DNA of 64,000 nucleotides from Bdellovibrionales bacterium (GCA_964230555.1 CAXRIX010000066.1:903-64902); one strand, 5' to 3'; counted from the stretch's first letter, positions 25,359-33,595 are shown. A program made the numbers and translations. Notes: a model not told the origin generated them from the sequence alone.

Positions 25359-26339
25359 TTACCAAGTCTCGTTAATGTGACTCATGAGCTTTTGTAAAAC
25401 ATCAAAACCCACTTCAAGGCGCATGGCGACCTCGAAGGCTTCTTCAGCACCATCGATAGCCCCAGTTTCCGGCAGATCGACGGTTTCAAGTGTCGCCACG
25501 ACCGATTTATAAGTTTCATTTTCTGGATTGGTGAGCGAAGAAAACTTCGCTTTAGCTGTCGACAAATTCTCGGCAGTGATTGAGGTGTCAGCCACATTTT
25601 CAACTGTCGACAGAAAATCATTGAGTTGGGTTTTGTTCGAATCCGTTTCCACGTAAGATAGATAAGGGCGCATTCCTTTGGCAATGGTGCCCATGATAGA
25701 AAGAGTCATTGTTTTCTGTTGAAGTTTAAGTTGCTCTTCGCTTCCTGGATGCGCCACTAAAAGAGCCTTATAACGATCGGCATAATGTTTGATATAGCGC
25801 CAAGTTTTGTTGAATTTTTGGCTGGCTTCGAGTCCGGCTGTTTCTTCTATGGAGCCGATGATAATCGAACTTTTTAAGATGGGTTGAATTGTGGTTTCCA
25901 AAATCTCGGCGGTTGCAACATACTGAGCGAAATATTGAATCACAGCCTTGGTATCAGGATTTTGCAAGTTGGCAGCCGAAACAGTTTGGCCGGCTTCGAT
26001 TGGCAGCCAGTAGTTGGGATTTTCACTGTCCATAAATTTAGAAGTTACACTTTGGGCCTTTTTAAAGGCTGGTAAGGTCGATAGACTGGCAAACTCGGCC
26101 ATGTGGTAATACGGATTGCCTTTGAACGGCAGAAAATCCAACATGTACAAAATCAGCATCCGACTTTGAATAATTTTGTAGCGCAAAGTTTGGCTGGCGA
26201 TATCCTCTTCACTAATCTTCGCCATCGCTTCGGCCCGACCGACACTGGCATCTTTACTGTAAGCGGCAACGGAAATGAGTAAGCTAATGAAAATTAGCGA
26301 CAATCGTTTGGGCCAAAAACTTGCCAAGATGGAACTCAT
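25359..26339 (-). CDS. Exported, apparently helical protein of unknown function
   Basis: Signal peptide-like N-terminus (RLSLIFISLLISVAAYS). AAGGAG lies 5 nt upstream of the ATG. Ends 10 nt upstream of the amidohydrolase gene. Confidence 0.65.
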   Translation of the reverse strand: MSSILASFWPKRLSLIFISLLISVAAYSKDASVGRAEAMAKISEEDIASQTLRYKIIQSRMLILYMLDFLPFKGNPYYHMAEFASLSTLPAFKKAQSVTSKFMDSENPNYWLPIEAGQTVSAANLQNPDTKAVIQYFAQYVATAEILETTIQPILKSSIIIGSIEETAGLEASQKFNKTWRYIKHYADRYKALLVAHPGSEEQLKLQQKTMTLSIMGTIAKGMRPYLSYVETDSNKTQLNDFLSTVENVADTSITAENLSTAKAKFSSLTNPENETYKSVVATLETVDLPETGAIDGAEEAFEVAMRLEVGFDVLQKLMSHINETW

Positions 26340-26538
26340 TCATACTCCTTAAAATTGTTTTGAAACTCAGTTTTGATATGTTCGAAATCTAACACTTTTC
26401 GATGGAATTTCGGTACTTTACTGATTGTTTTGCAAAACTTTCAGGAGTGTAAATTGTTTCTGTAAAAGAACTAAACAGTCAGATCAATGGACGACGAAAT
26501 CTTAACACAAAAACAACCTAAGAAGCTGCTGAGGGGCT

Positions 26539-26919
26539 CTAGGACTGATTCTGCTCCAGTTGATTTTCCCAATAATCAAAAAGGGAAATCAACTTTGGCG
26601 CCAGGTCTTTGCCTTTTTTTGAGAGGACGATTGTGCGCTTTCGACCATCTTCTTGATCCAGCCCGATTCGAACAAGTTTCGATTGTTGCAGAGCCCGTAA
26701 ACAATGGCTTATTTGATGTTTGGGGAGGCTGAGGGTGAGGCCCAACAAAGAGGGGTGGACCGGTTCATTTTTTTCGAAAAAAAGCGCCAGTAAAATAAGG
26801 GCTTCGTTGATATTCACGCTGCAGCTTTTAAGCTCTTTTCGAAGCGGGGTAAAATAGTTTTGATAGTCTTGGTGGGCTTTCACTAAGGAGCTACGGTCCA
26901 TAAACTCTTGGAATTTCAT
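26539..26919 (-). CDS. MarR-like winged-helix transcriptional regulator
   Basis: 126 aa. EALILLALF..LSLPKHQISHCLRALQQSKLVRIGLDQEDGRKRTIVLSKKG fits an HTH plus wing (DxxDxRxxxxxLTxxG pattern). Divergent from bioB. Confidence 0.55.
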   Translation of the reverse strand: MKFQEFMDRSSLVKAHQDYQNYFTPLRKELKSCSVNINEALILLALFFEKNEPVHPSLLGLTLSLPKHQISHCLRALQQSKLVRIGLDQEDGRKRTIVLSKKGKDLAPKLISLFDYWENQLEQNQS

Positions 26920-26954
26920 GGCTTCCTTCTAGCTTACTTTGTTGCTAAAAACAA

Positions 26955-26973
26955 TAGTTGTAGATTGCAACTA
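26955..26973. promoter_or_regulatory. Palindrome TAGTTG-N7-CAACTA in the MarR-like/bioB divergent intergenic region (candidate operator)
   Basis: Read directly: TAGTTG 26955-60 and CAACTA 26968-73. An adjacent TTGTT-N6-AACAA lies at 26939-26954. Confidence 0.35.
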
Positions 26974-27020
26974 AAAGCCAGAGAACACCCTGAAATTATT
27001 GAAGATTACCTTGTCAATTG

Positions 27021-27034
27021 GCCAAGCCCTTGGC
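27021..27034. promoter_or_regulatory. Palindrome GCCAAG-CC-CTTGGC 12 nt upstream of the bioB start
   Basis: Read directly: GCCAAG 27021-26 and CTTGGC 27029-34. Could be an operator or a 5'-UTR hairpin. Confidence 0.3.
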
Positions 27035-27045
27035 AAATACAGGGC

Positions 27046-27987
27046 ATGGAAAAAGCACAATTATCACCGACTCTAGACATCTATCGCCAACCCTTTATGG
27101 ATTTGCTTTTTAAAGCTCATACGATCCATCGGGAAAATCACAACCTTAACCACATTCAAAAGTGCTCGCTGCTGTCGATAAAAACCGGCGGTTGTCCTGA
27201 AAACTGTTCCTATTGTCCACAATCGGCCCATTACAAGACCAATTTAAAAAGTGAAAGTCTAATGGACATGCAAGAGGTGGCCAAGTCGATCAGTGATGCC
27301 AAAGCCCAAGGCGCCGAAAGGTTTTGTATGGGTGCGGCTTGGCGGGAAGTCCGTGATGGAAAGCAGTTCGACCAAGTCATCGAAATGGTAAAGATGGTAA
27401 AAGCCAACGACATGGAAGCCTGCGTGACATTAGGAATGCTGTCAAAGGAACAAGCACAAAAACTTAAAGACGCCGGCCTGGATGCCTACAATCACAATCT
27501 TGATAGCAGTCGTGAATTCTACGACAAAATTATTCAAACCCGCACTTATGATGATCGATTGAACACAATTGCCAATGTGAGTGCCGCTGGAATATCGGTT
27601 TGCAGTGGGGGAATTCTTGGTATGGGTGAAAGCGACAAAGATCGATGTGCGATGTTGGTGGAACTGGCGAATCTCGAGCCGCAACCCGAATCGGTACCGA
27701 TTAATTTGCTTATTCCAGTGGAGGGCACACCTCTTGAAAAGCAAGAGCCGGTTGAGCCTCTTGAGCTTATTCGCACCATTGCCACAGCTCGTATTCTTAT
27801 GCCTAAATCTCGCATTCGATTGTCCGCCGGTCGTAAGGACATGAGCCGAGAGACGCAAACGCTGGCCTACTTTGCTGGAGCCAGCTCCATATTCTTGGGT
27901 GATAAACTACTAACACGAGACAATCCTGAGGTTTTGGCTGACGAAAAATTATTTAGTGATCTCGGTATGCAAAACCAAATGCAGTGA
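27046..27987 (+). CDS. bioB: Biotin synthase
   Basis: Radical-SAM CxxxCxxC in LLSIKTGGCPENCSYCPQS. N-terminus MEKAQLSPTLDIYRQPFMDLLFKAHTIHRENH aligns with the E. coli BioB N-terminus, so the track start at 26908 was trimmed. Confidence 0.9.
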   Translation: MEKAQLSPTLDIYRQPFMDLLFKAHTIHRENHNLNHIQKCSLLSIKTGGCPENCSYCPQSAHYKTNLKSESLMDMQEVAKSISDAKAQGAERFCMGAAWREVRDGKQFDQVIEMVKMVKANDMEACVTLGMLSKEQAQKLKDAGLDAYNHNLDSSREFYDKIIQTRTYDDRLNTIANVSAAGISVCSGGILGMGESDKDRCAMLVELANLEPQPESVPINLLIPVEGTPLEKQEPVEPLELIRTIATARILMPKSRIRLSAGRKDMSRETQTLAYFAGASSIFLGDKLLTRDNPEVLADEKLFSDLGMQNQMQ

Positions 27988-29144
27988 GGCCTATGACGTT
28001 TAATGAGCTCTACGAAAAATCGAAAGAGAGTTGGATAGCGACTGATTCTTACCGCAAGTTAAAAACACCAACTGGGATAGATTTCTGTTCCAATGATTAC
28101 TTGGGCCTTTCGGCCTCTCAAGAACTAAACCAGCGAATCGTCGAACGAATGAAAATTCTGGGACTTGGTTCGACCGGCTCTCGCCTCTTGTGTGGGCAAA
28201 GTCATTTAACGGAAAAGCTTGAAGAGGAATTGGCAGAATTTTCAGGAATGGATCGCAGCTTGTTTTTTTCATCCGGCTATCAAGCCAACTTGGCTTTATT
28301 TTCCAGCCTTTTAAAAAATGAGGCCGTGGTTTTTTCTGATGAACGCATCCACGCCTCGATAATTGACGGCATTCGACTTTCCCGATGCGAAAAATATATT
28401 TGGTCGCATAATGATCTTGAACATCTTCGAATGCTTTTAAAGCAAAAAGTTGATCCGAGACGATTAAATATCGTTGTTGTTGAAAGCATTTATTCGATGA
28501 CTGGTCATTTTGCACCCTTACCGGAGCTTGTTGAGATTTGTGAGGAGATGGGTGCTTATCTAATTGTTGACGAGGCTCATGCGACCGGTCTGTATGGACA
28601 TGGGGGCTCTGGTCTCTGTGATCATTATAAATTGAACGATCGAATTTTTGCAAAAATTCACACGGCTGGTAAAGCCTTAGGTGTGAGCGGTGCTTGGATT
28701 GCGGGGGCTGATTCGCTTATCGACTTAGTCGTTAACACGGCAAGACCTTTTATCTACTCAACCGCTCCTGCGCAGTATCAGCAGGTGGCCTGCGAAGAGG
28801 CGATGCAATGGGTGACCAAGAACTTTCAGACCTTGCAAGCGACCTTTCAAGAGAGAGTTCTCGGTTTTCAAAACTTTTTAAAACAAAGGCTGGTGTCGAC
28901 GCAGTTCAGTGCCAGTGGGTGGGGAAGTCCCGTTACGGCATGGGTTCTTGGCGAAAACAAAAAAGCTTTGAGTGCAATGAATTATCTTAGTGAAAAAGGT
29001 TTTGAGGTGCGAGCCATACGGCCGCCATCGGTGCCAATAAATGAATCCCTCCTTCGAATCACGGTTCCATTAAATCGAACTGAAACCGAAGTTACCGATT
29101 TTCAAAAGGCCATCGAACTGTGTTTGCTGGAGCTTGAAACATGA
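27984..29144 (+). CDS. bioF: 8-amino-7-oxononanoate synthase
   Basis: FCSNDYLGL, DEAHATGLYG, and PLP-lysine region HTAGKALG. GTGA overlap with the bioB stop. ATG 27993 is an alternative start. Confidence 0.9.
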   Translation: MRPMTFNELYEKSKESWIATDSYRKLKTPTGIDFCSNDYLGLSASQELNQRIVERMKILGLGSTGSRLLCGQSHLTEKLEEELAEFSGMDRSLFFSSGYQANLALFSSLLKNEAVVFSDERIHASIIDGIRLSRCEKYIWSHNDLEHLRMLLKQKVDPRRLNIVVVESIYSMTGHFAPLPELVEICEEMGAYLIVDEAHATGLYGHGGSGLCDHYKLNDRIFAKIHTAGKALGVSGAWIAGADSLIDLVVNTARPFIYSTAPAQYQQVACEEAMQWVTKNFQTLQATFQERVLGFQNFLKQRLVSTQFSASGWGSPVTAWVLGENKKALSAMNYLSEKGFEVRAIRPPSVPINESLLRITVPLNRTETEVTDFQKAIELCLLELET

Positions 29145-31078
29145 GTTTGTTTGTCACCGGAACTGATACCGACATTGGAAAGACCTTTGCATCAACAATT
29201 TTGTTGAAAGCCTTCAGCCGTCAAACCTCAGTTTCCTATTTCAAGCCGATCCAATCGGGAGAACCCACTGACTTTTCCACAATTCAATCGGCTGTGCCCA
29301 ACGCAAAGATTAAAGCCTCGACGTATTTTCTAAAAACTCCAGCCTCTCCAGATCGAGCCGCGGCTATAGAATCGAAAACACTGTCAGTGGAAACAGTGAA
29401 GAATGATTGGTTGAATCGAGATGAGTCCTTCCACATTGTCGAGGGTGCCGGGGGCCTTTGTGTGCCAATCAATGATCAACATCAGATGATCGATTTGATC
29501 AAAGAATTAGAGATTCCAGTGCTTTTAGTAGCTTCAACCCGCTTGGGTACAATCAATCATACCTTGCTATCAGCCCAGGCGATGAAGGCCAAGGGACTTG
29601 CGATCGAAGGAATAATACTCAATGGCAAGGAAGATCCGGGGCTCAAGGAGCTTATACAGGAAAAAACCGGTTTGAAGGTCATCCTTGAAATCCCAGAGTT
29701 CAAAAATCCCAGCAACCAGAGCATCGAGGCCTGGATTGAAACTCAAAACGACCTACAATCTTTTGTCACTCAAATGGTGAAAAAGTCTGTTGATGAAGTC
29801 ACAGATGTTTCGGATTGGGGGACTCGGGATAAAGACTTTGTTTGGCATCCCTTCACCCAGCATGGCATTGTTAAAAATCATCCGATTGTGGATTCCGCCA
29901 AGGGAGCCTACCTGACTGTTGACGGGCGTCGAGTTATTGATGGAATTTCCTCGTGGTGGGTGAATTTGCTGGGACATTGCCGTCCCGAGATCTCACAAGC
30001 CATCAATCAACAGTCGCAAGCCCTAGAGCATGTGATTTTTGCCGGTTTTTCTCATCGTCCTGGCATTGAACTCAGCGAATCTTTAATTCGGAAGGCACAG
30101 AGCCAGGGAGCTCGGGTTAACAAAGCCTTTTTTTCAGACAATGGATCAACGGCTGTCGAAGTGGCTTTGAAAATGGCCTATCAATATCATCGCCAGACTG
30201 GTCAAACCCAGAAAACTCGCTTTCTTGCGTTTCGGGGCTCCTATCATGGTGATACTTTAGGAGCCATGTCCGTAGGGGAGCGCCAGGGATTTAATGATGT
30301 CTTTCGTCCACTGATGTTTGATGTCGACTTTGTTGATCCCTTTAATACTGCGGCCGTCGAACAAGCCTTTGCCAACAGTGGCGATAGGTACGCGGCCGCG
30401 ATTTTTGAACCCATGGTGCAAGGGGCCTCGGGTATGCGGATGTACCCGACGGAAACTTTGGACGTTTTAGAAGAGTGTTGCAATCAGCATGATGTTTTTA
30501 AAATTTGTGATGAAGTGTTCACAGGGTTTTATCGGACGGGGCGGTTTTTTGGATTTGAGCACAGTCGAATAAAACCAGACTTTCTGTGTTTGTCAAAAGG
30601 ACTGACCGGTGGGTTCTTGCCGTTGGCAGTCACATTAACAAGTGACAGTTTGTACAGGCAGTTCCATAGCGACGACATGAGGCAGGCCTTTCTTCACGGT
30701 CATTCTTACACAGCAAACCCGATCGCCTGTGCCGCGGCCTTGGCGACCTTAAAACTTCTGCAGACAGAATCGGTCCAGACCAGGATTCGAGAAATTGAAT
30801 TATGGACTCAGCAGAACGTGGCTGAGCTGATGGAGACGGGGCGATTTTTTCGTGGCCGAACGTTGGGTACCATTGGTGCGGTGGAAGTTTCTGATGAAGA
30901 CCCAAACTATTTTAAAGGCGACTTTTCCTACAAGTTCAATCAGGCCGCTTTAAAACGAGGGGTTCTATTACGTCCTCTTGGGGGGACGCTTTACAGTGTG
31001 CCGCCCTATTGTATAGAGAAAATCGAGTTAGAAAAAATTTATCACACAATGTACGAAGTTCTGAAACAGGAGTTTTAA
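29141..31078 (+). CDS. Fused dethiobiotin synthetase (N-terminal, ~aa 1-215) / adenosylmethionine-8-amino-7-oxononanoate aminotransferase (C-terminal)
   Basis: BioD P-loop LFVTGTDTDIGKTF and VEGAGGLCVP, then BioA FVWHPFTQH, SDNGSTAVEVALKMA, CDEVFTGFYRTG, LSKGLTGG. One uninterrupted 645-aa frame. Confidence 0.85.
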   Translation: MSLFVTGTDTDIGKTFASTILLKAFSRQTSVSYFKPIQSGEPTDFSTIQSAVPNAKIKASTYFLKTPASPDRAAAIESKTLSVETVKNDWLNRDESFHIVEGAGGLCVPINDQHQMIDLIKELEIPVLLVASTRLGTINHTLLSAQAMKAKGLAIEGIILNGKEDPGLKELIQEKTGLKVILEIPEFKNPSNQSIEAWIETQNDLQSFVTQMVKKSVDEVTDVSDWGTRDKDFVWHPFTQHGIVKNHPIVDSAKGAYLTVDGRRVIDGISSWWVNLLGHCRPEISQAINQQSQALEHVIFAGFSHRPGIELSESLIRKAQSQGARVNKAFFSDNGSTAVEVALKMAYQYHRQTGQTQKTRFLAFRGSYHGDTLGAMSVGERQGFNDVFRPLMFDVDFVDPFNTAAVEQAFANSGDRYAAAIFEPMVQGASGMRMYPTETLDVLEECCNQHDVFKICDEVFTGFYRTGRFFGFEHSRIKPDFLCLSKGLTGGFLPLAVTLTSDSLYRQFHSDDMRQAFLHGHSYTANPIACAAALATLKLLQTESVQTRIREIELWTQQNVAELMETGRFFRGRTLGTIGAVEVSDEDPNYFKGDFSYKFNQAALKRGVLLRPLGGTLYSVPPYCIEKIELEKIYHTMYEVLKQEF

Positions 31079-31705
31079 ATGACAGATTGGAAGCAAATAC
31101 TTATTGAGTTGGTTAAAGAGCCTCAGCAACACGCTCGATTTTTAAATACCATCAGTTTGATGGAGTATATGGGTGCTCGTAAGATCATGAAAAGTCAGAA
31201 AGAAAGCGTTATCGACCGCGAGGTTCTGGCGCATATGACTGAAGAGATTCGTCACGCTCAGATTTTCAAGAAAATGGCTTTAAAACTTAGTGAAGGACAT
31301 TTAAAGACTTACGATGATGAGTATCTACTGGCGGGGGCTGCGGGACGAGCCTATATTCAATCGGTGGACCAATCAGTGGCAGCCGCTTTAAATGGTGAAG
31401 ACTCTCACTACAATTACCTTCTTTCAACACTCTTAATTGAAGAGCGCGCCAACACAGTTTATCCCTTTTATGCCGATTTGATGGAGCCCCTTGGCTTTGC
31501 GTCTTATATTAAAACGATTTTGCGAGAAGAGGAGCACCACCTGGAGCAAATCCAAACCGAATTGCAGAAAAATGAAAAATTGACGTCACAAAAGCTTGCG
31601 GCCTTACGAATGATAGAACAGAAGGCCTTTAATTTCTTAATGATTTCGGCCTATGAGGAGTTCAAAGGAGACTCCGATTGGATTGAAAAAGACGCCTATT
31701 TATAA
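31079..31705 (+). CDS. Ferritin-like diiron-carboxylate protein of unknown function, last gene of the biotin operon
   Basis: The ATG immediately follows the bioDA TAA stop. Ligand pattern E29, E56-x-x-H59 (TEEIRH), E121/E122 (LIEERA), E150/151-x-x-H153/154 (REEEHH), with ~27-30 aa spacing as in four-helix-bundle diiron enzymes. Confidence 0.55.
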   Translation: MTDWKQILIELVKEPQQHARFLNTISLMEYMGARKIMKSQKESVIDREVLAHMTEEIRHAQIFKKMALKLSEGHLKTYDDEYLLAGAAGRAYIQSVDQSVAAALNGEDSHYNYLLSTLLIEERANTVYPFYADLMEPLGFASYIKTILREEEHHLEQIQTELQKNEKLTSQKLAALRMIEQKAFNFLMISAYEEFKGDSDWIEKDAYL

Positions 31706-31760
31706 CAGTTTGGCTTTGGGCTAAAGATTTGTTAAAATAGGCTTGAACAAAAGGATGCCG

Positions 31761-32849
31761 ATGAACCGTGTTTTGATTCTGACTATTTTTCTAAGCTTTT
31801 CCAGCCCGCTTTGGTCGGCCCTAGCCGGCGAACAAAAGGCCACCTTTGCTGGTGGCTGCTTCTGGTGTATGGAGCCGCCGTTTGAAAAACTAAAAGGTGT
31901 TGGTCCTGTTGTTTCAGGCTACATGGGTGGTGATGTAAAAGATCCAACTTATAAACAGGTCTCCTCGGGAACGACCGGTCACCTTGAAGTGGTGCAGGTG
32001 ACCTATGACCCAAGTAAGATTTCTTACGAAGATTTATTGCAAGTGTTTTGGAGGCAAATTAATCCCACGGATGCCGGAGGACAGTTTGTTGATCGGGGGG
32101 AGCAGTATACAACCGCGATCTTCTATCACTCTAAAAATCAAAAAGAGATTGCAGAGAAGTCGAAACAGAAAATGGATGCGAGCCAGCGGTTTAAAAAGCC
32201 AATAGTGACGCCAGTCCGTGAAGCCAAAGAGTTTTATGCAGCCGAACAGTACCACCAAGATTTTTATAAAAATAGCATATTAAAGTACAAATATTACCGA
32301 TACCGCTCAGGTCGTGACGATTACTTAGACGAAACCTGGGGAGACGATCGAGATTACAAACCAAAAGGTAAAAAGAAGGCGACCATGTCAAAATACAGCA
32401 GACCATCAGATGAAAAAATAAAAGAAATGTTAAATAAAATACAATACAAAGTGACACAGAAAGACGGTACCGAACGGGCCTTTAAAAACGAGTATTGGGA
32501 TAACAAACAAGAAGGCATTTATGTCGATGTTGTCAGTGGAGAGCCGCTGTTCAGCTCGACCCATAAATACAAGTCCGGCACCGGCTGGCCTTCATTTTTT
32601 AAACCGATTGAAGAACAAAATATCGTTGAGAAAGAGGATCGAGGTTTATTTTCTGTAAGAACTGAGGTGCGATCGAAGCATGGTGATTCACACTTAGGTC
32701 ATGTTTTTGAGGATGGACCGCAGCCGACTGGTCTTCGATATTGTATCAACTCAGCGGCCCTTCGCTTTGTCCCTCGCGAGAAGATGGAAGAAGAGGGTTA
32801 TGGCGAGTACTTAACTCTTTTTACGAAGCAGGCTTCTGCCACAAAATAA
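31761..32849 (+). CDS. msrAB: Exported fused methionine sulfoxide reductase MsrA-MsrB
   Basis: Signal peptide [22 protein letters not shown]. MsrA motif GGCFWCME. MsrB motifs GTGWPSF and RYCINSAAL. Start could also be 31743 (TTG) or 31755 (ATG). Confidence 0.9.
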
Positions 32850-32956
32850 TTGACCTTTCTATCGGCCTTCTTCAAAATTTGAGGGTCCCCTGCAAGAATT
32901 AAGCGTCATATTGCGTTCCTGCACAGGGCAATCCACTTTTTATAAGGAGAAGGTCT

Positions 32957-33595
32957 GTGAAGTATTTAGTGATTTCTTTAATTACCCTATCGTTAGCAAT
33001 GCTTGGCTGTGAGTCTGCCGGAAAGAAAACCGCTGTCGGCACCGGTGTCGGAGCAGCAGCAGGCGCAGCCGTCGGAGCCGTGTTGGGACATCAAATGGGC
33101 AAACGAGGCAAAGGGGCCGCTATTGGCGCTGCTATTGGCGCCGGTGTTGGTGGGGCTTATGGTTACAAGCTTGATAAGCAAGCCAAAGAGCTGGAAAAAA
33201 TTGCTGAAACCAAGCGAACAGAAAATGGAATTATCACTAAGTTAAAAGGCGACATCCTTTTTTCCACTGGGTCTCCGGCCGTTCAGTCACAGGCCAAACA
33301 AAGTGTTACCAAAATATCGAATATCCTAAAAAAGTACCCTGAAAATAGAATCACTGTTGTTGGTCATACCGACAGTACGGGGAGCGACTCCACCAACCAA
33401 GAGCTGTCGGAAAAGCGAGCCCGTGCGGTCAAATCAATCATGGTGGCGCAAGGCGTACCAGCCCAACACGTTGAAGTTGTCGGAGCCGGTGAAAGTAGTC
33501 CCGTAGCGGACAATTCAACCAAAGAGGGACGCGCTCAGAATCGACGAGTGGAGCTTCAAATCACCATGGAAAAGACTGAAGAAGAGGGCGCTTAG
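32957..33595 (+). CDS. OmpA-family lipoprotein with N-terminal glycine-zipper region
   Basis: Lipobox LAMLGC. Gly/Ala zipper GTGVGAAAGAAVGAVLG. OmpA C-terminal domain VVGHTDSTGS..NQELSEKRA..NRRVEL. AAGGAG lies 7 nt upstream of GTG 32957. Confidence 0.8.
   Translation: MKYLVISLITLSLAMLGCESAGKKTAVGTGVGAAAGAAVGAVLGHQMGKRGKGAAIGAAIGAGVGGAYGYKLDKQAKELEKIAETKRTENGIITKLKGDILFSTGSPAVQSQAKQSVTKISNILKKYPENRITVVGHTDSTGSDSTNQELSEKRARAVKSIMVAQGVPAQHVEVVGAGESSPVADNSTKEGRAQNRRVELQITMEKTEEEGA

Follow-up and report, generated by a model that had tools for sequence, protein, structure and literature searches.

The question raised by this locus is where the pimeloyl moiety of biotin comes from in a bacterium whose biotin operon holds bioB, bioF and a bioD-bioA fusion, and whether the small gene at the end of that operon may supply it. 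The gene lies in a 64,000-nucleotide stretch of a Bdellovibrionales genome assembly (GCA_964230555.1 CAXRIX010000066.1:903-64902), which was analysed as a whole and is referred to hereafter as the window. Its 208-aa product had been proposed, in a preliminary description made from the DNA alone, to be a diiron oxygenase that forms a pimeloyl thioester in the manner of the P450 BioI. The proposed activity is the one published for BioE, and the window protein was found, by way of Bacteroidota relatives, to be a full-length homologue of that family; the gene is called bioE-like here. What did not survive was the novelty of a "non-canonical" enzyme, since this route has already been described as the fourth pimeloyl route, BioE (PMC12704756, PMC12915131).

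The genes and the signal that make up the locus are the following, in window coordinates:

26539-26919, minus strand: MarR/winged-helix-like gene, 126 aa, with weak MarR_2, HTH_27 and HxlR matches
26908-27987, plus strand: bioB (biotin synthase), TIGR00433 at 398 bits (cut-off 225)
27984-29144, plus strand: bioF (8-amino-7-oxononanoate synthase), TIGR00858 at 344 bits (E 7e-103), under the model cut-off of 426 yet the top-scoring family; Aminotran_1_2
29141-31078, plus strand: bioD-bioA fusion, 645 aa, AAA_26 at residues 2-188 and Aminotran_3 at 248-640; TIGR00508 at 498 bits, above cut-off
31068-31072, plus strand: AGGAG ribosome-binding site of the bioE-like gene, read from the sequence, within the last codons of bioD-bioA
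31079-31705, plus strand: bioE-like gene, ORF of 208 aa, predicted ferritin-like diiron oxygenase

In this pathway, BioF is the enzyme that consumes the pimeloyl thioester, bioD encodes dethiobiotin synthetase and bioA encodes DAPA aminotransferase. The bioE-like gene directly follows the fusion gene, as had been stated for it: the stop codon TAA of bioD-bioA (31076-31078) abuts the ATG (31079-31081), the AGGAG motif is placed 6 nt before this start, and the window reads ...AGGAGTTTTAAATG... at the ORF. The abutment of the two genes is compatible with translational coupling. The fusion is in the order D-then-A; single ORFs of 649-655 aa also cover both functions in two related loci (L074, 5466-7433; L075, 5199-7148), and bioD and bioA are separate (~220 and ~430 aa) in L076-L079, so the fusion is lineage-specific. 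Downstream of the bioE-like gene, positions 31743-32849 encode an MsrA-MsrB fusion (methionine sulfoxide reductase) whose N-terminus carries a hydrophobic segment resembling a signal peptide; the closest relatives (L001-L006, L010 and L024) keep this gene in the same place, and it probably has its own promoter. A promoter and terminator scan of positions 26300-33000 gave counts equal to the shuffled expectation.

At the other end of the operon, the mechanical bioB ORF starts with TTG at 26908 and overlaps the start of the MarR-like gene. Because the BioB family match begins only at residue 53, the true start is more probably the ATG at 27046 (residue M47), and a spacer of ~126 nt (26920-27045) then lies between bioB and the divergent MarR-like gene. 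In 12 related loci (L001, L002, L004-L006, L008, L009, L025, L028, L032, L045 and L049) a MarR-like homologue is likewise placed divergent from bioB, and no MocR-type BioL (GntR plus aminotransferase) adjoins the bio operon of the window. The MarR-like gene may be a candidate regulator of the biotin operon in place of BioL. Unregulated BioE is harmful and BioL is needed (PMC12915131); the BioL partner is nevertheless frequent rather than universal, being absent from Chlamydia, and is not a defining feature of BioE (PMC12915131).

Relatives of the 208-aa protein were collected by a word-indexed search, which returned 91 proteins (nearly all unnamed or "hypothetical", a few "rubrerythrin"), and by a profile search run exhaustively against 1.84 billion cluster representatives, which gave 716 at E <= 0.001 and 276 at E <= 1e-30. 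Pfam and NCBIfam scans assigned the protein to no family at threshold, and the only matches were weak ones to BP28CT and COQ7, the latter (PF03232) scoring 11.3 bits against a cut-off of 23.5, with an E-value of 0.27 and one helix covered. The Pfam model PF11266 (Ald_deCOase) gave no match at E up to 1. The diiron ligand pattern noticed at the outset was recovered in the alignments: E29, E56, H59, E121, E151 and H154 were invariant in 39 aligned relatives, and across 62 more distant members each of these six positions was either invariant or conserved to 90% or more. The last ligand pair had been left ambiguous as E150/151xxH153/154; the motif itself is real, and within the local sequence R149-E150-E151-E152-H153-H154 it was resolved to E151xxH154. 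E55, E150, the G32-x-R34-K35 motif, Y78, Y92, Y113 and Y128 were also invariant in the 39 relatives, in which R90 was mostly R or K. Judged by this conservation, the predicted ligand pattern is real, far from chance and under strong selection.

The AlphaFold2 model obtained with the family alignment was all-helical, with seven helices (pLDDT 92.3, pTM 0.89). Foldseek against the PDB gave weak E-values throughout (at least 0.1), with chains of cyanobacterial aldehyde-deformylating oxygenase (cADO; 8fhc, 4kvq, 5ux2 and 5k53) at TM 0.55-0.64. The list mixed F-BAR proteins and de novo bundles with true matches, and the TM scores of the haem-oxygenase-like TenA and AetD were similar to those of cADO. 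The fold search alone fails to separate a ferritin-like from a haem-oxygenase-like assignment; the ligand pattern together with the sequence profile does separate them. When PDB sequences were searched with the single protein, only marginal bacterioferritin matches were obtained (E ~0.1); cADO was reached only with the family profile. A comparison with aldehyde-deformylating oxygenases had been suggested in the preliminary description; with that profile the top 17 matches were all enzymes of this type (decarbonylases; best E 6.9e-9), and designed diiron bundles and symerythrin ranked next. By profile and predicted model, the closest solved relatives of the 208-aa protein are the cyanobacterial aldehyde-deformylating oxygenases, as published for BioE, for which cADO was named the closest known structure (PMC12704756).

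Two papers of December 2025, in PNAS (PMC12704756) and in Adv Sci (PMC12915131), deal with BioE. It is a non-haem diiron oxygenase with a ferritin-like fold, first described from Elizabethkingia meningoseptica and Chryseobacterium indologenes (PMC12704756), the characterised loci being BBD33_16475 and CEQ15_06550, respectively (PMC12704756, PMC12915131). Oxidative cleavage of long-chain acyl thioesters to a pimeloyl thioester was shown for Elizabethkingia, Chryseobacterium and Chlamydia psittaci (PMC12704756, PMC12915131), and BioE rescued delta-bioC, delta-bioH and delta-bioC/H mutants of E. coli only with O2 (PMC12704756). The C. psittaci enzyme (CpBioE) is a monomer and acyl-ACP-specific (PMC12915131). 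The essential ligands of the E. meningoseptica enzyme (EmBioE) are E26, E53, H56, E125, E155 and H158, and its phosphopantetheine-arm contacts are F24, R31, K32 and R87 (PMC12704756); each of the six diiron ligands is essential in both EmBioE and CpBioE (PMC12704756, PMC12915131). Flavobacteriaceae, Chitinophagaceae, Sphingobacteriaceae, Flectobacillaceae, Burkholderiaceae and Chlamydiaceae were reported as carriers (PMC12915131), in a distribution survey with thresholds of >40% identity and >85% coverage (PMC12915131).

The BioE membership of the window protein rests on a bridge through Bacteroidota homologues, and not on a direct alignment to EmBioE, CiBioE or CpBioE. A protein from Bacteroidota MAGs (P0225) and its nearest neighbours form a clade with invariant E26, E53, H56, E125, E155, H158, R31 and K32, and these residue numbers are the published EmBioE ligand and contact numbers. 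A search with this clade matched 4190 proteins; named Sphingobacterium, Pedobacter, Mucilaginibacter, Daejeonella and Chitinophaga proteins were among the matches listed and fall in families published as BioE carriers, and no Weeksellaceae protein was present in the best 120 of the 4190. In Sphingobacterium oryzagri, the locus of the homologue P0212 runs in the order MocR-type regulator (GntR plus aminotransferase, divergent), P0212, bioF, bioD, bioB and bioA, which is the arrangement bioL / bioEFD / bioBA published for BioE (PMC12704756). In a Bacteroidota MAG locus the homologue comes last, after bioB-bioF-bioD-bioA, like in the window. Comparison of the window family profile with the Bacteroidota clade by hhalign gave a probability of 100% and an E-value of 4.2e-53 over 198 aligned columns, and BLASTP of the window protein against P0212 gave 38% identity (E 1e-32). 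The identity of the window protein to the clade is ~30-38%, under the 40% threshold of PMC12915131. The following residues were paired by hhalign:

Window E29 with Bacteroidota clade E26
Window R34 with Bacteroidota clade R31
Window K35 with Bacteroidota clade K32
Window E56 with Bacteroidota clade E53
Window H59 with Bacteroidota clade H56
Window E121 with Bacteroidota clade E125
Window E151 with Bacteroidota clade E155
Window H154 with Bacteroidota clade H158

Relative to the clade, the window protein lacks 7 residues in the loop that precedes the third ligand helix, and no other sizeable indel is present. R34, K35 and R90 are putative contacts of the carrier arm, a role carried over from R31, K32 and R87 of EmBioE. 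Y128 (invariant) and Y131 (nearly invariant) would correspond to the channel residues Y147/Y150 of CpBioE, a correspondence made by numbering offset and not by alignment.

One important point is whether another enzyme could provide the pimeloyl unit in this organism. The lack of pimeloyl-forming genes, which had been observed around the operon, extends to the whole genome (97% complete) as regards BioC, BioH, BioW and BioI: the best BioC match reached 60 bits against a cut-off of 185, the best BioH match 64 bits against 207, and neither BioW nor a P450 was found. The same observation is less clean for BioZ, as a second, divergent KAS III of 338 aa is encoded on another contig (C93, ~28000-32300; L082). 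FabH and FabD are encoded in the genome, so acyl-ACP would be available for the proposed reaction. The second KAS III was scored with the generic FabH subfamily model (252 bits, cut-off 249), and it is the sole candidate in the genome for a BioZ-like route, in which the pimeloyl unit would come from this enzyme and the diiron gene would be redundant or accessory. Against this stand its position, unlinked to bio genes, and its flanking genes, an acyl-CoA ligase, a FabG-like reductase and an alpha/beta hydrolase (the genome's best BioH score, although weak), which resemble, and probably are, a lipid or secondary-metabolite set. Such a route would also leave unexplained why the diiron gene and BioB occur together almost without exception, as described below, and we consider it highly improbable.

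The distribution of the gene was surveyed in 251 evenly sampled Bdellovibrionota genomes, in which a bioE-like gene was counted at E <= 1e-10. BioC was found in 0 of the 251 genomes, BioB in 43 and the bioE-like gene in 42, and both of the latter were present in 36. Seven genomes initially appeared to have BioB only. One of them, G026, carries a bioE-like gene 3 kb downstream of bioB that is cut by the contig end and was recovered with a broader profile; three others are less than 80% complete. With G026 included, 37 of the 43 BioB-positive genomes have the gene. Six genomes showed the gene but not BioB, four of them through weak matches (G131, G152, G223 and G245) and the other two being fragmented or contaminated. 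Fisher's exact test on 36/2/7/206 gave p ~5e-34, a value that ignores phylogenetic non-independence. The preliminary description had expected support from co-occurrence with the bio genes and from anti-correlation with the other pimeloyl routes; co-occurrence with BioB was observed, as was the absence of BioC from the sample and of BioC, BioH, BioW and BioI from the window's own genome. Since BioC is absent from all 251 genomes and the gene is present in 37 of the 43 with BioB, BioE looks like the default biotin-starting route across Bdellovibrionota, or at least appears to be the usual one.

The weak matches in G131 and G245 correspond to a protein of ~446 aa with two ferritin-like domains, which was rejected as BioE and regarded as a two-domain distant paralogue; similar partial matches in G152 and G223 lie in frames of 448-498 aa. 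In G131 the gene for the 446-aa two-domain protein (contig C1, 356574-357779; L092 1384-2724, minus strand) shows weak DUF455 and Ald_deCOase matches and adjoins an acyltransferase-domain gene. These 446-aa two-domain diiron proteins occur in complete, BioB-negative genomes of the same order.

Genomic linkage was scanned with one genome per GTDB species, which yielded 49 loci, and neighbouring genes were identified by tblastn with the Bio proteins of the window. The homologue was found beside bioB, bioF, bioD or bioA in 36 of the 49 loci, so that linkage to bio genes extends to other taxa; most copies directly follow bioB-bioF-bioD-bioA, and in L043, L046 and L049 the gene lies between bioD and bioA. 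Bio-linked homologues were also present in MAGs labelled "Gammaproteobacteria" or "Proteobacteria" (L030, L031, L035, L039, L040 and L042). The 13 unlinked copies were scattered among the linked ones in a maximum-likelihood tree and formed no separate deep clade. BioB is encoded in all 11 genomes with an unlinked homologue that were searched, and in those inspected the bioB-bioF-bioD-bioA cluster is ordinary and contains no further candidate for a pimeloyl gene.

In two loci of one subclade, L019 (8308-10603) and L020 (8314-10594), the homologue is away from the bio operon and lies directly 3' of a DAHP-synthase-family gene and a UbiE/COQ5 methyltransferase gene, and L022 (993-3324) has the same pattern, known from its ORFs alone. 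This adjacency, together with the weak COQ7 match (E 0.27) and cADO as the nearest solved fold, would fit a hydroxylase of the quinone pathway or of other lipids, of the Coq7 or aldehyde-deformylating type, that neighbours the bio genes by chance. The ubiE-adjacent copies are, however, nested within the bio-linked copies in the tree, their genomes retain bioB-bioF-bioD-bioA at another site, in a cluster free of other pimeloyl genes, the gene is almost confined to BioB-positive genomes, and both the COQ7 and the Ald_deCOase Pfam models stay below their cut-offs. The Coq7-like identity prompted by the ubiE adjacency was rejected on the tree position and the co-occurrence with BioB, and a chance neighbour of this kind has in our estimation hardly any probability.

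A 2Fe-2S ferredoxin of 133-147 aa (Pfam Fer2) is encoded divergently from bioB in L074 (9696-10139, plus strand) and L076 (9942-10343, plus strand), two loci in which bioE is unlinked; this protein may donate electrons to BioB or to the diiron oxygenase. A ferredoxin gene next to bioB in some relatives also bears on another reading, according to which the diiron protein has a different biotin-related task, as an iron or electron helper of the radical-SAM enzyme BioB or as an oxidase of a later intermediate, and pimelate comes from an unrecognised route. Operon linkage alone is silent on the step that is served, and auxiliary proteins of BioB are known, such as BsaP (cited in PMC12704756). This reading is nonetheless very unlikely, as the protein is homologous to the Bacteroidota BioE clade along its whole length and retains every ligand and carrier-contact residue, BioC, BioH, BioW and P450 are lacking from the genome, and BioC is absent from the 251 genomes of the phylum.

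Taken together, the homology, the conservation of ligands and contacts, the fold, the operon linkage, the co-occurrence and the lack of BioC, BioH, BioW and P450 lead us to identify the 208-aa protein, with a probability of about 0.88, as a divergent Bdellovibrionota orthologue of BioE that would start biotin synthesis. The reaction, the chain-length range, the O2 dependence, the carrier preference and the electron donor are inferred from the published BioE enzymes. By analogy with them, the helical-bundle protein would bind two irons through E29, E56/H59, E121 and E151/H154, and a long-chain (C14-C18) acyl-ACP or acyl-CoA from fatty-acid synthesis would enter a hydrophobic tunnel while its carrier arm is held by R34, K35 and R90. 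With O2 and an external reductant, C7 and C8 would be oxidised and the C7-C8 bond cleaved, giving pimeloyl-ACP or pimeloyl-CoA and a free Cn-7 fatty acid. The pimeloyl thioester would then be converted into biotin by BioF, BioD-BioA and BioB of the same operon.

While the BioE route is known, what is new is a divergent member in Bdellovibrionota, a phylum absent from both papers. The text of PMC12915131 is silent on Bdellovibrio, Oligoflexia, Gammaproteobacteria, ferredoxin or MarR, and a literature search found no paper tying BioE to Bdellovibrio. The range of BioE, so far comprising Bacteroidota families, Burkholderiaceae and Chlamydiaceae, would be extended to Bdellovibrionota and to some uncultured Gammaproteobacteria, Myxococcota and Acidobacteriota MAGs. 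As no Pfam or NCBIfam model exists, the genes are labelled "hypothetical" or "rubrerythrin", and pathway reconstructions would class the genomes as pimelate-incomplete, a gap that a BioE family model would mend. The value of the finding lies mainly in annotation, in the distribution of the family and in a regulator that is possibly different, and the divergent clade offers natural variation for structure-function work on an unusual ten-electron C-C cleaving diiron enzyme. A bolder proposal, which we put forward tentatively and regard as doubtful, is that the Bdellovibrionota BioE is a distinct subfamily and the only pimeloyl route of a BioC-less phylum, under an undescribed regulator of the MarR family and, in some lineages, with a 2Fe-2S ferredoxin dedicated to electron supply. 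Biotin autonomy would be tied to the predatory lifestyle if the enzyme drew on acyl-CoA from prey and not on the cell's own acyl-ACP.

Among known systems, BioI (CYP107H1) of Bacillus subtilis is a functional analogue, for which the same oxidative C7-C8 cleavage of long-chain acyl-ACP to pimeloyl-ACP is proposed; it differs from the window protein in being a haem-thiolate P450 of unrelated fold. The cADO enzymes (PDB 4kvq, 5uwz, 5k53 and 8fhc) share the diiron ligand architecture with the window protein, and they have in common with the proposed enzyme a tunnel that binds a fatty chain and a C-C cleaving chemistry. Unlike it, they convert free aldehydes into alkanes and formate and have no linkage to bio genes. 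The BioE enzymes of Elizabethkingia, Chryseobacterium and C. psittaci come closest. The differences concern the distance from the first His to the third Glu (62 residues in the window protein, 69 in BioE as represented by the Bacteroidota clade), the position of the gene (last of bioB-bioF-bioDA in the window, first of bioEFD in the published loci), the neighbouring regulator (a MarR-like gene divergent from bioB against the MocR-type BioL) and the host, whose phylum, Bdellovibrionota, is outside the published BioE distribution. In common, both are proteins of ~200-210 aa with a ferritin-like diiron fold, predicted in the case of the window protein, and both have the same six-ligand pattern, with spacings of 27, 3, then 30, 3. 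They also share the Arg-Lys pair and the later Arg that in BioE contact the phosphopantetheine, as well as, by numbering offset, conserved aromatic or hydrophobic channel positions, and in both cases the gene is embedded in a bioF/D/A/B cluster of a host without BioC, BioH, BioW or BioI.
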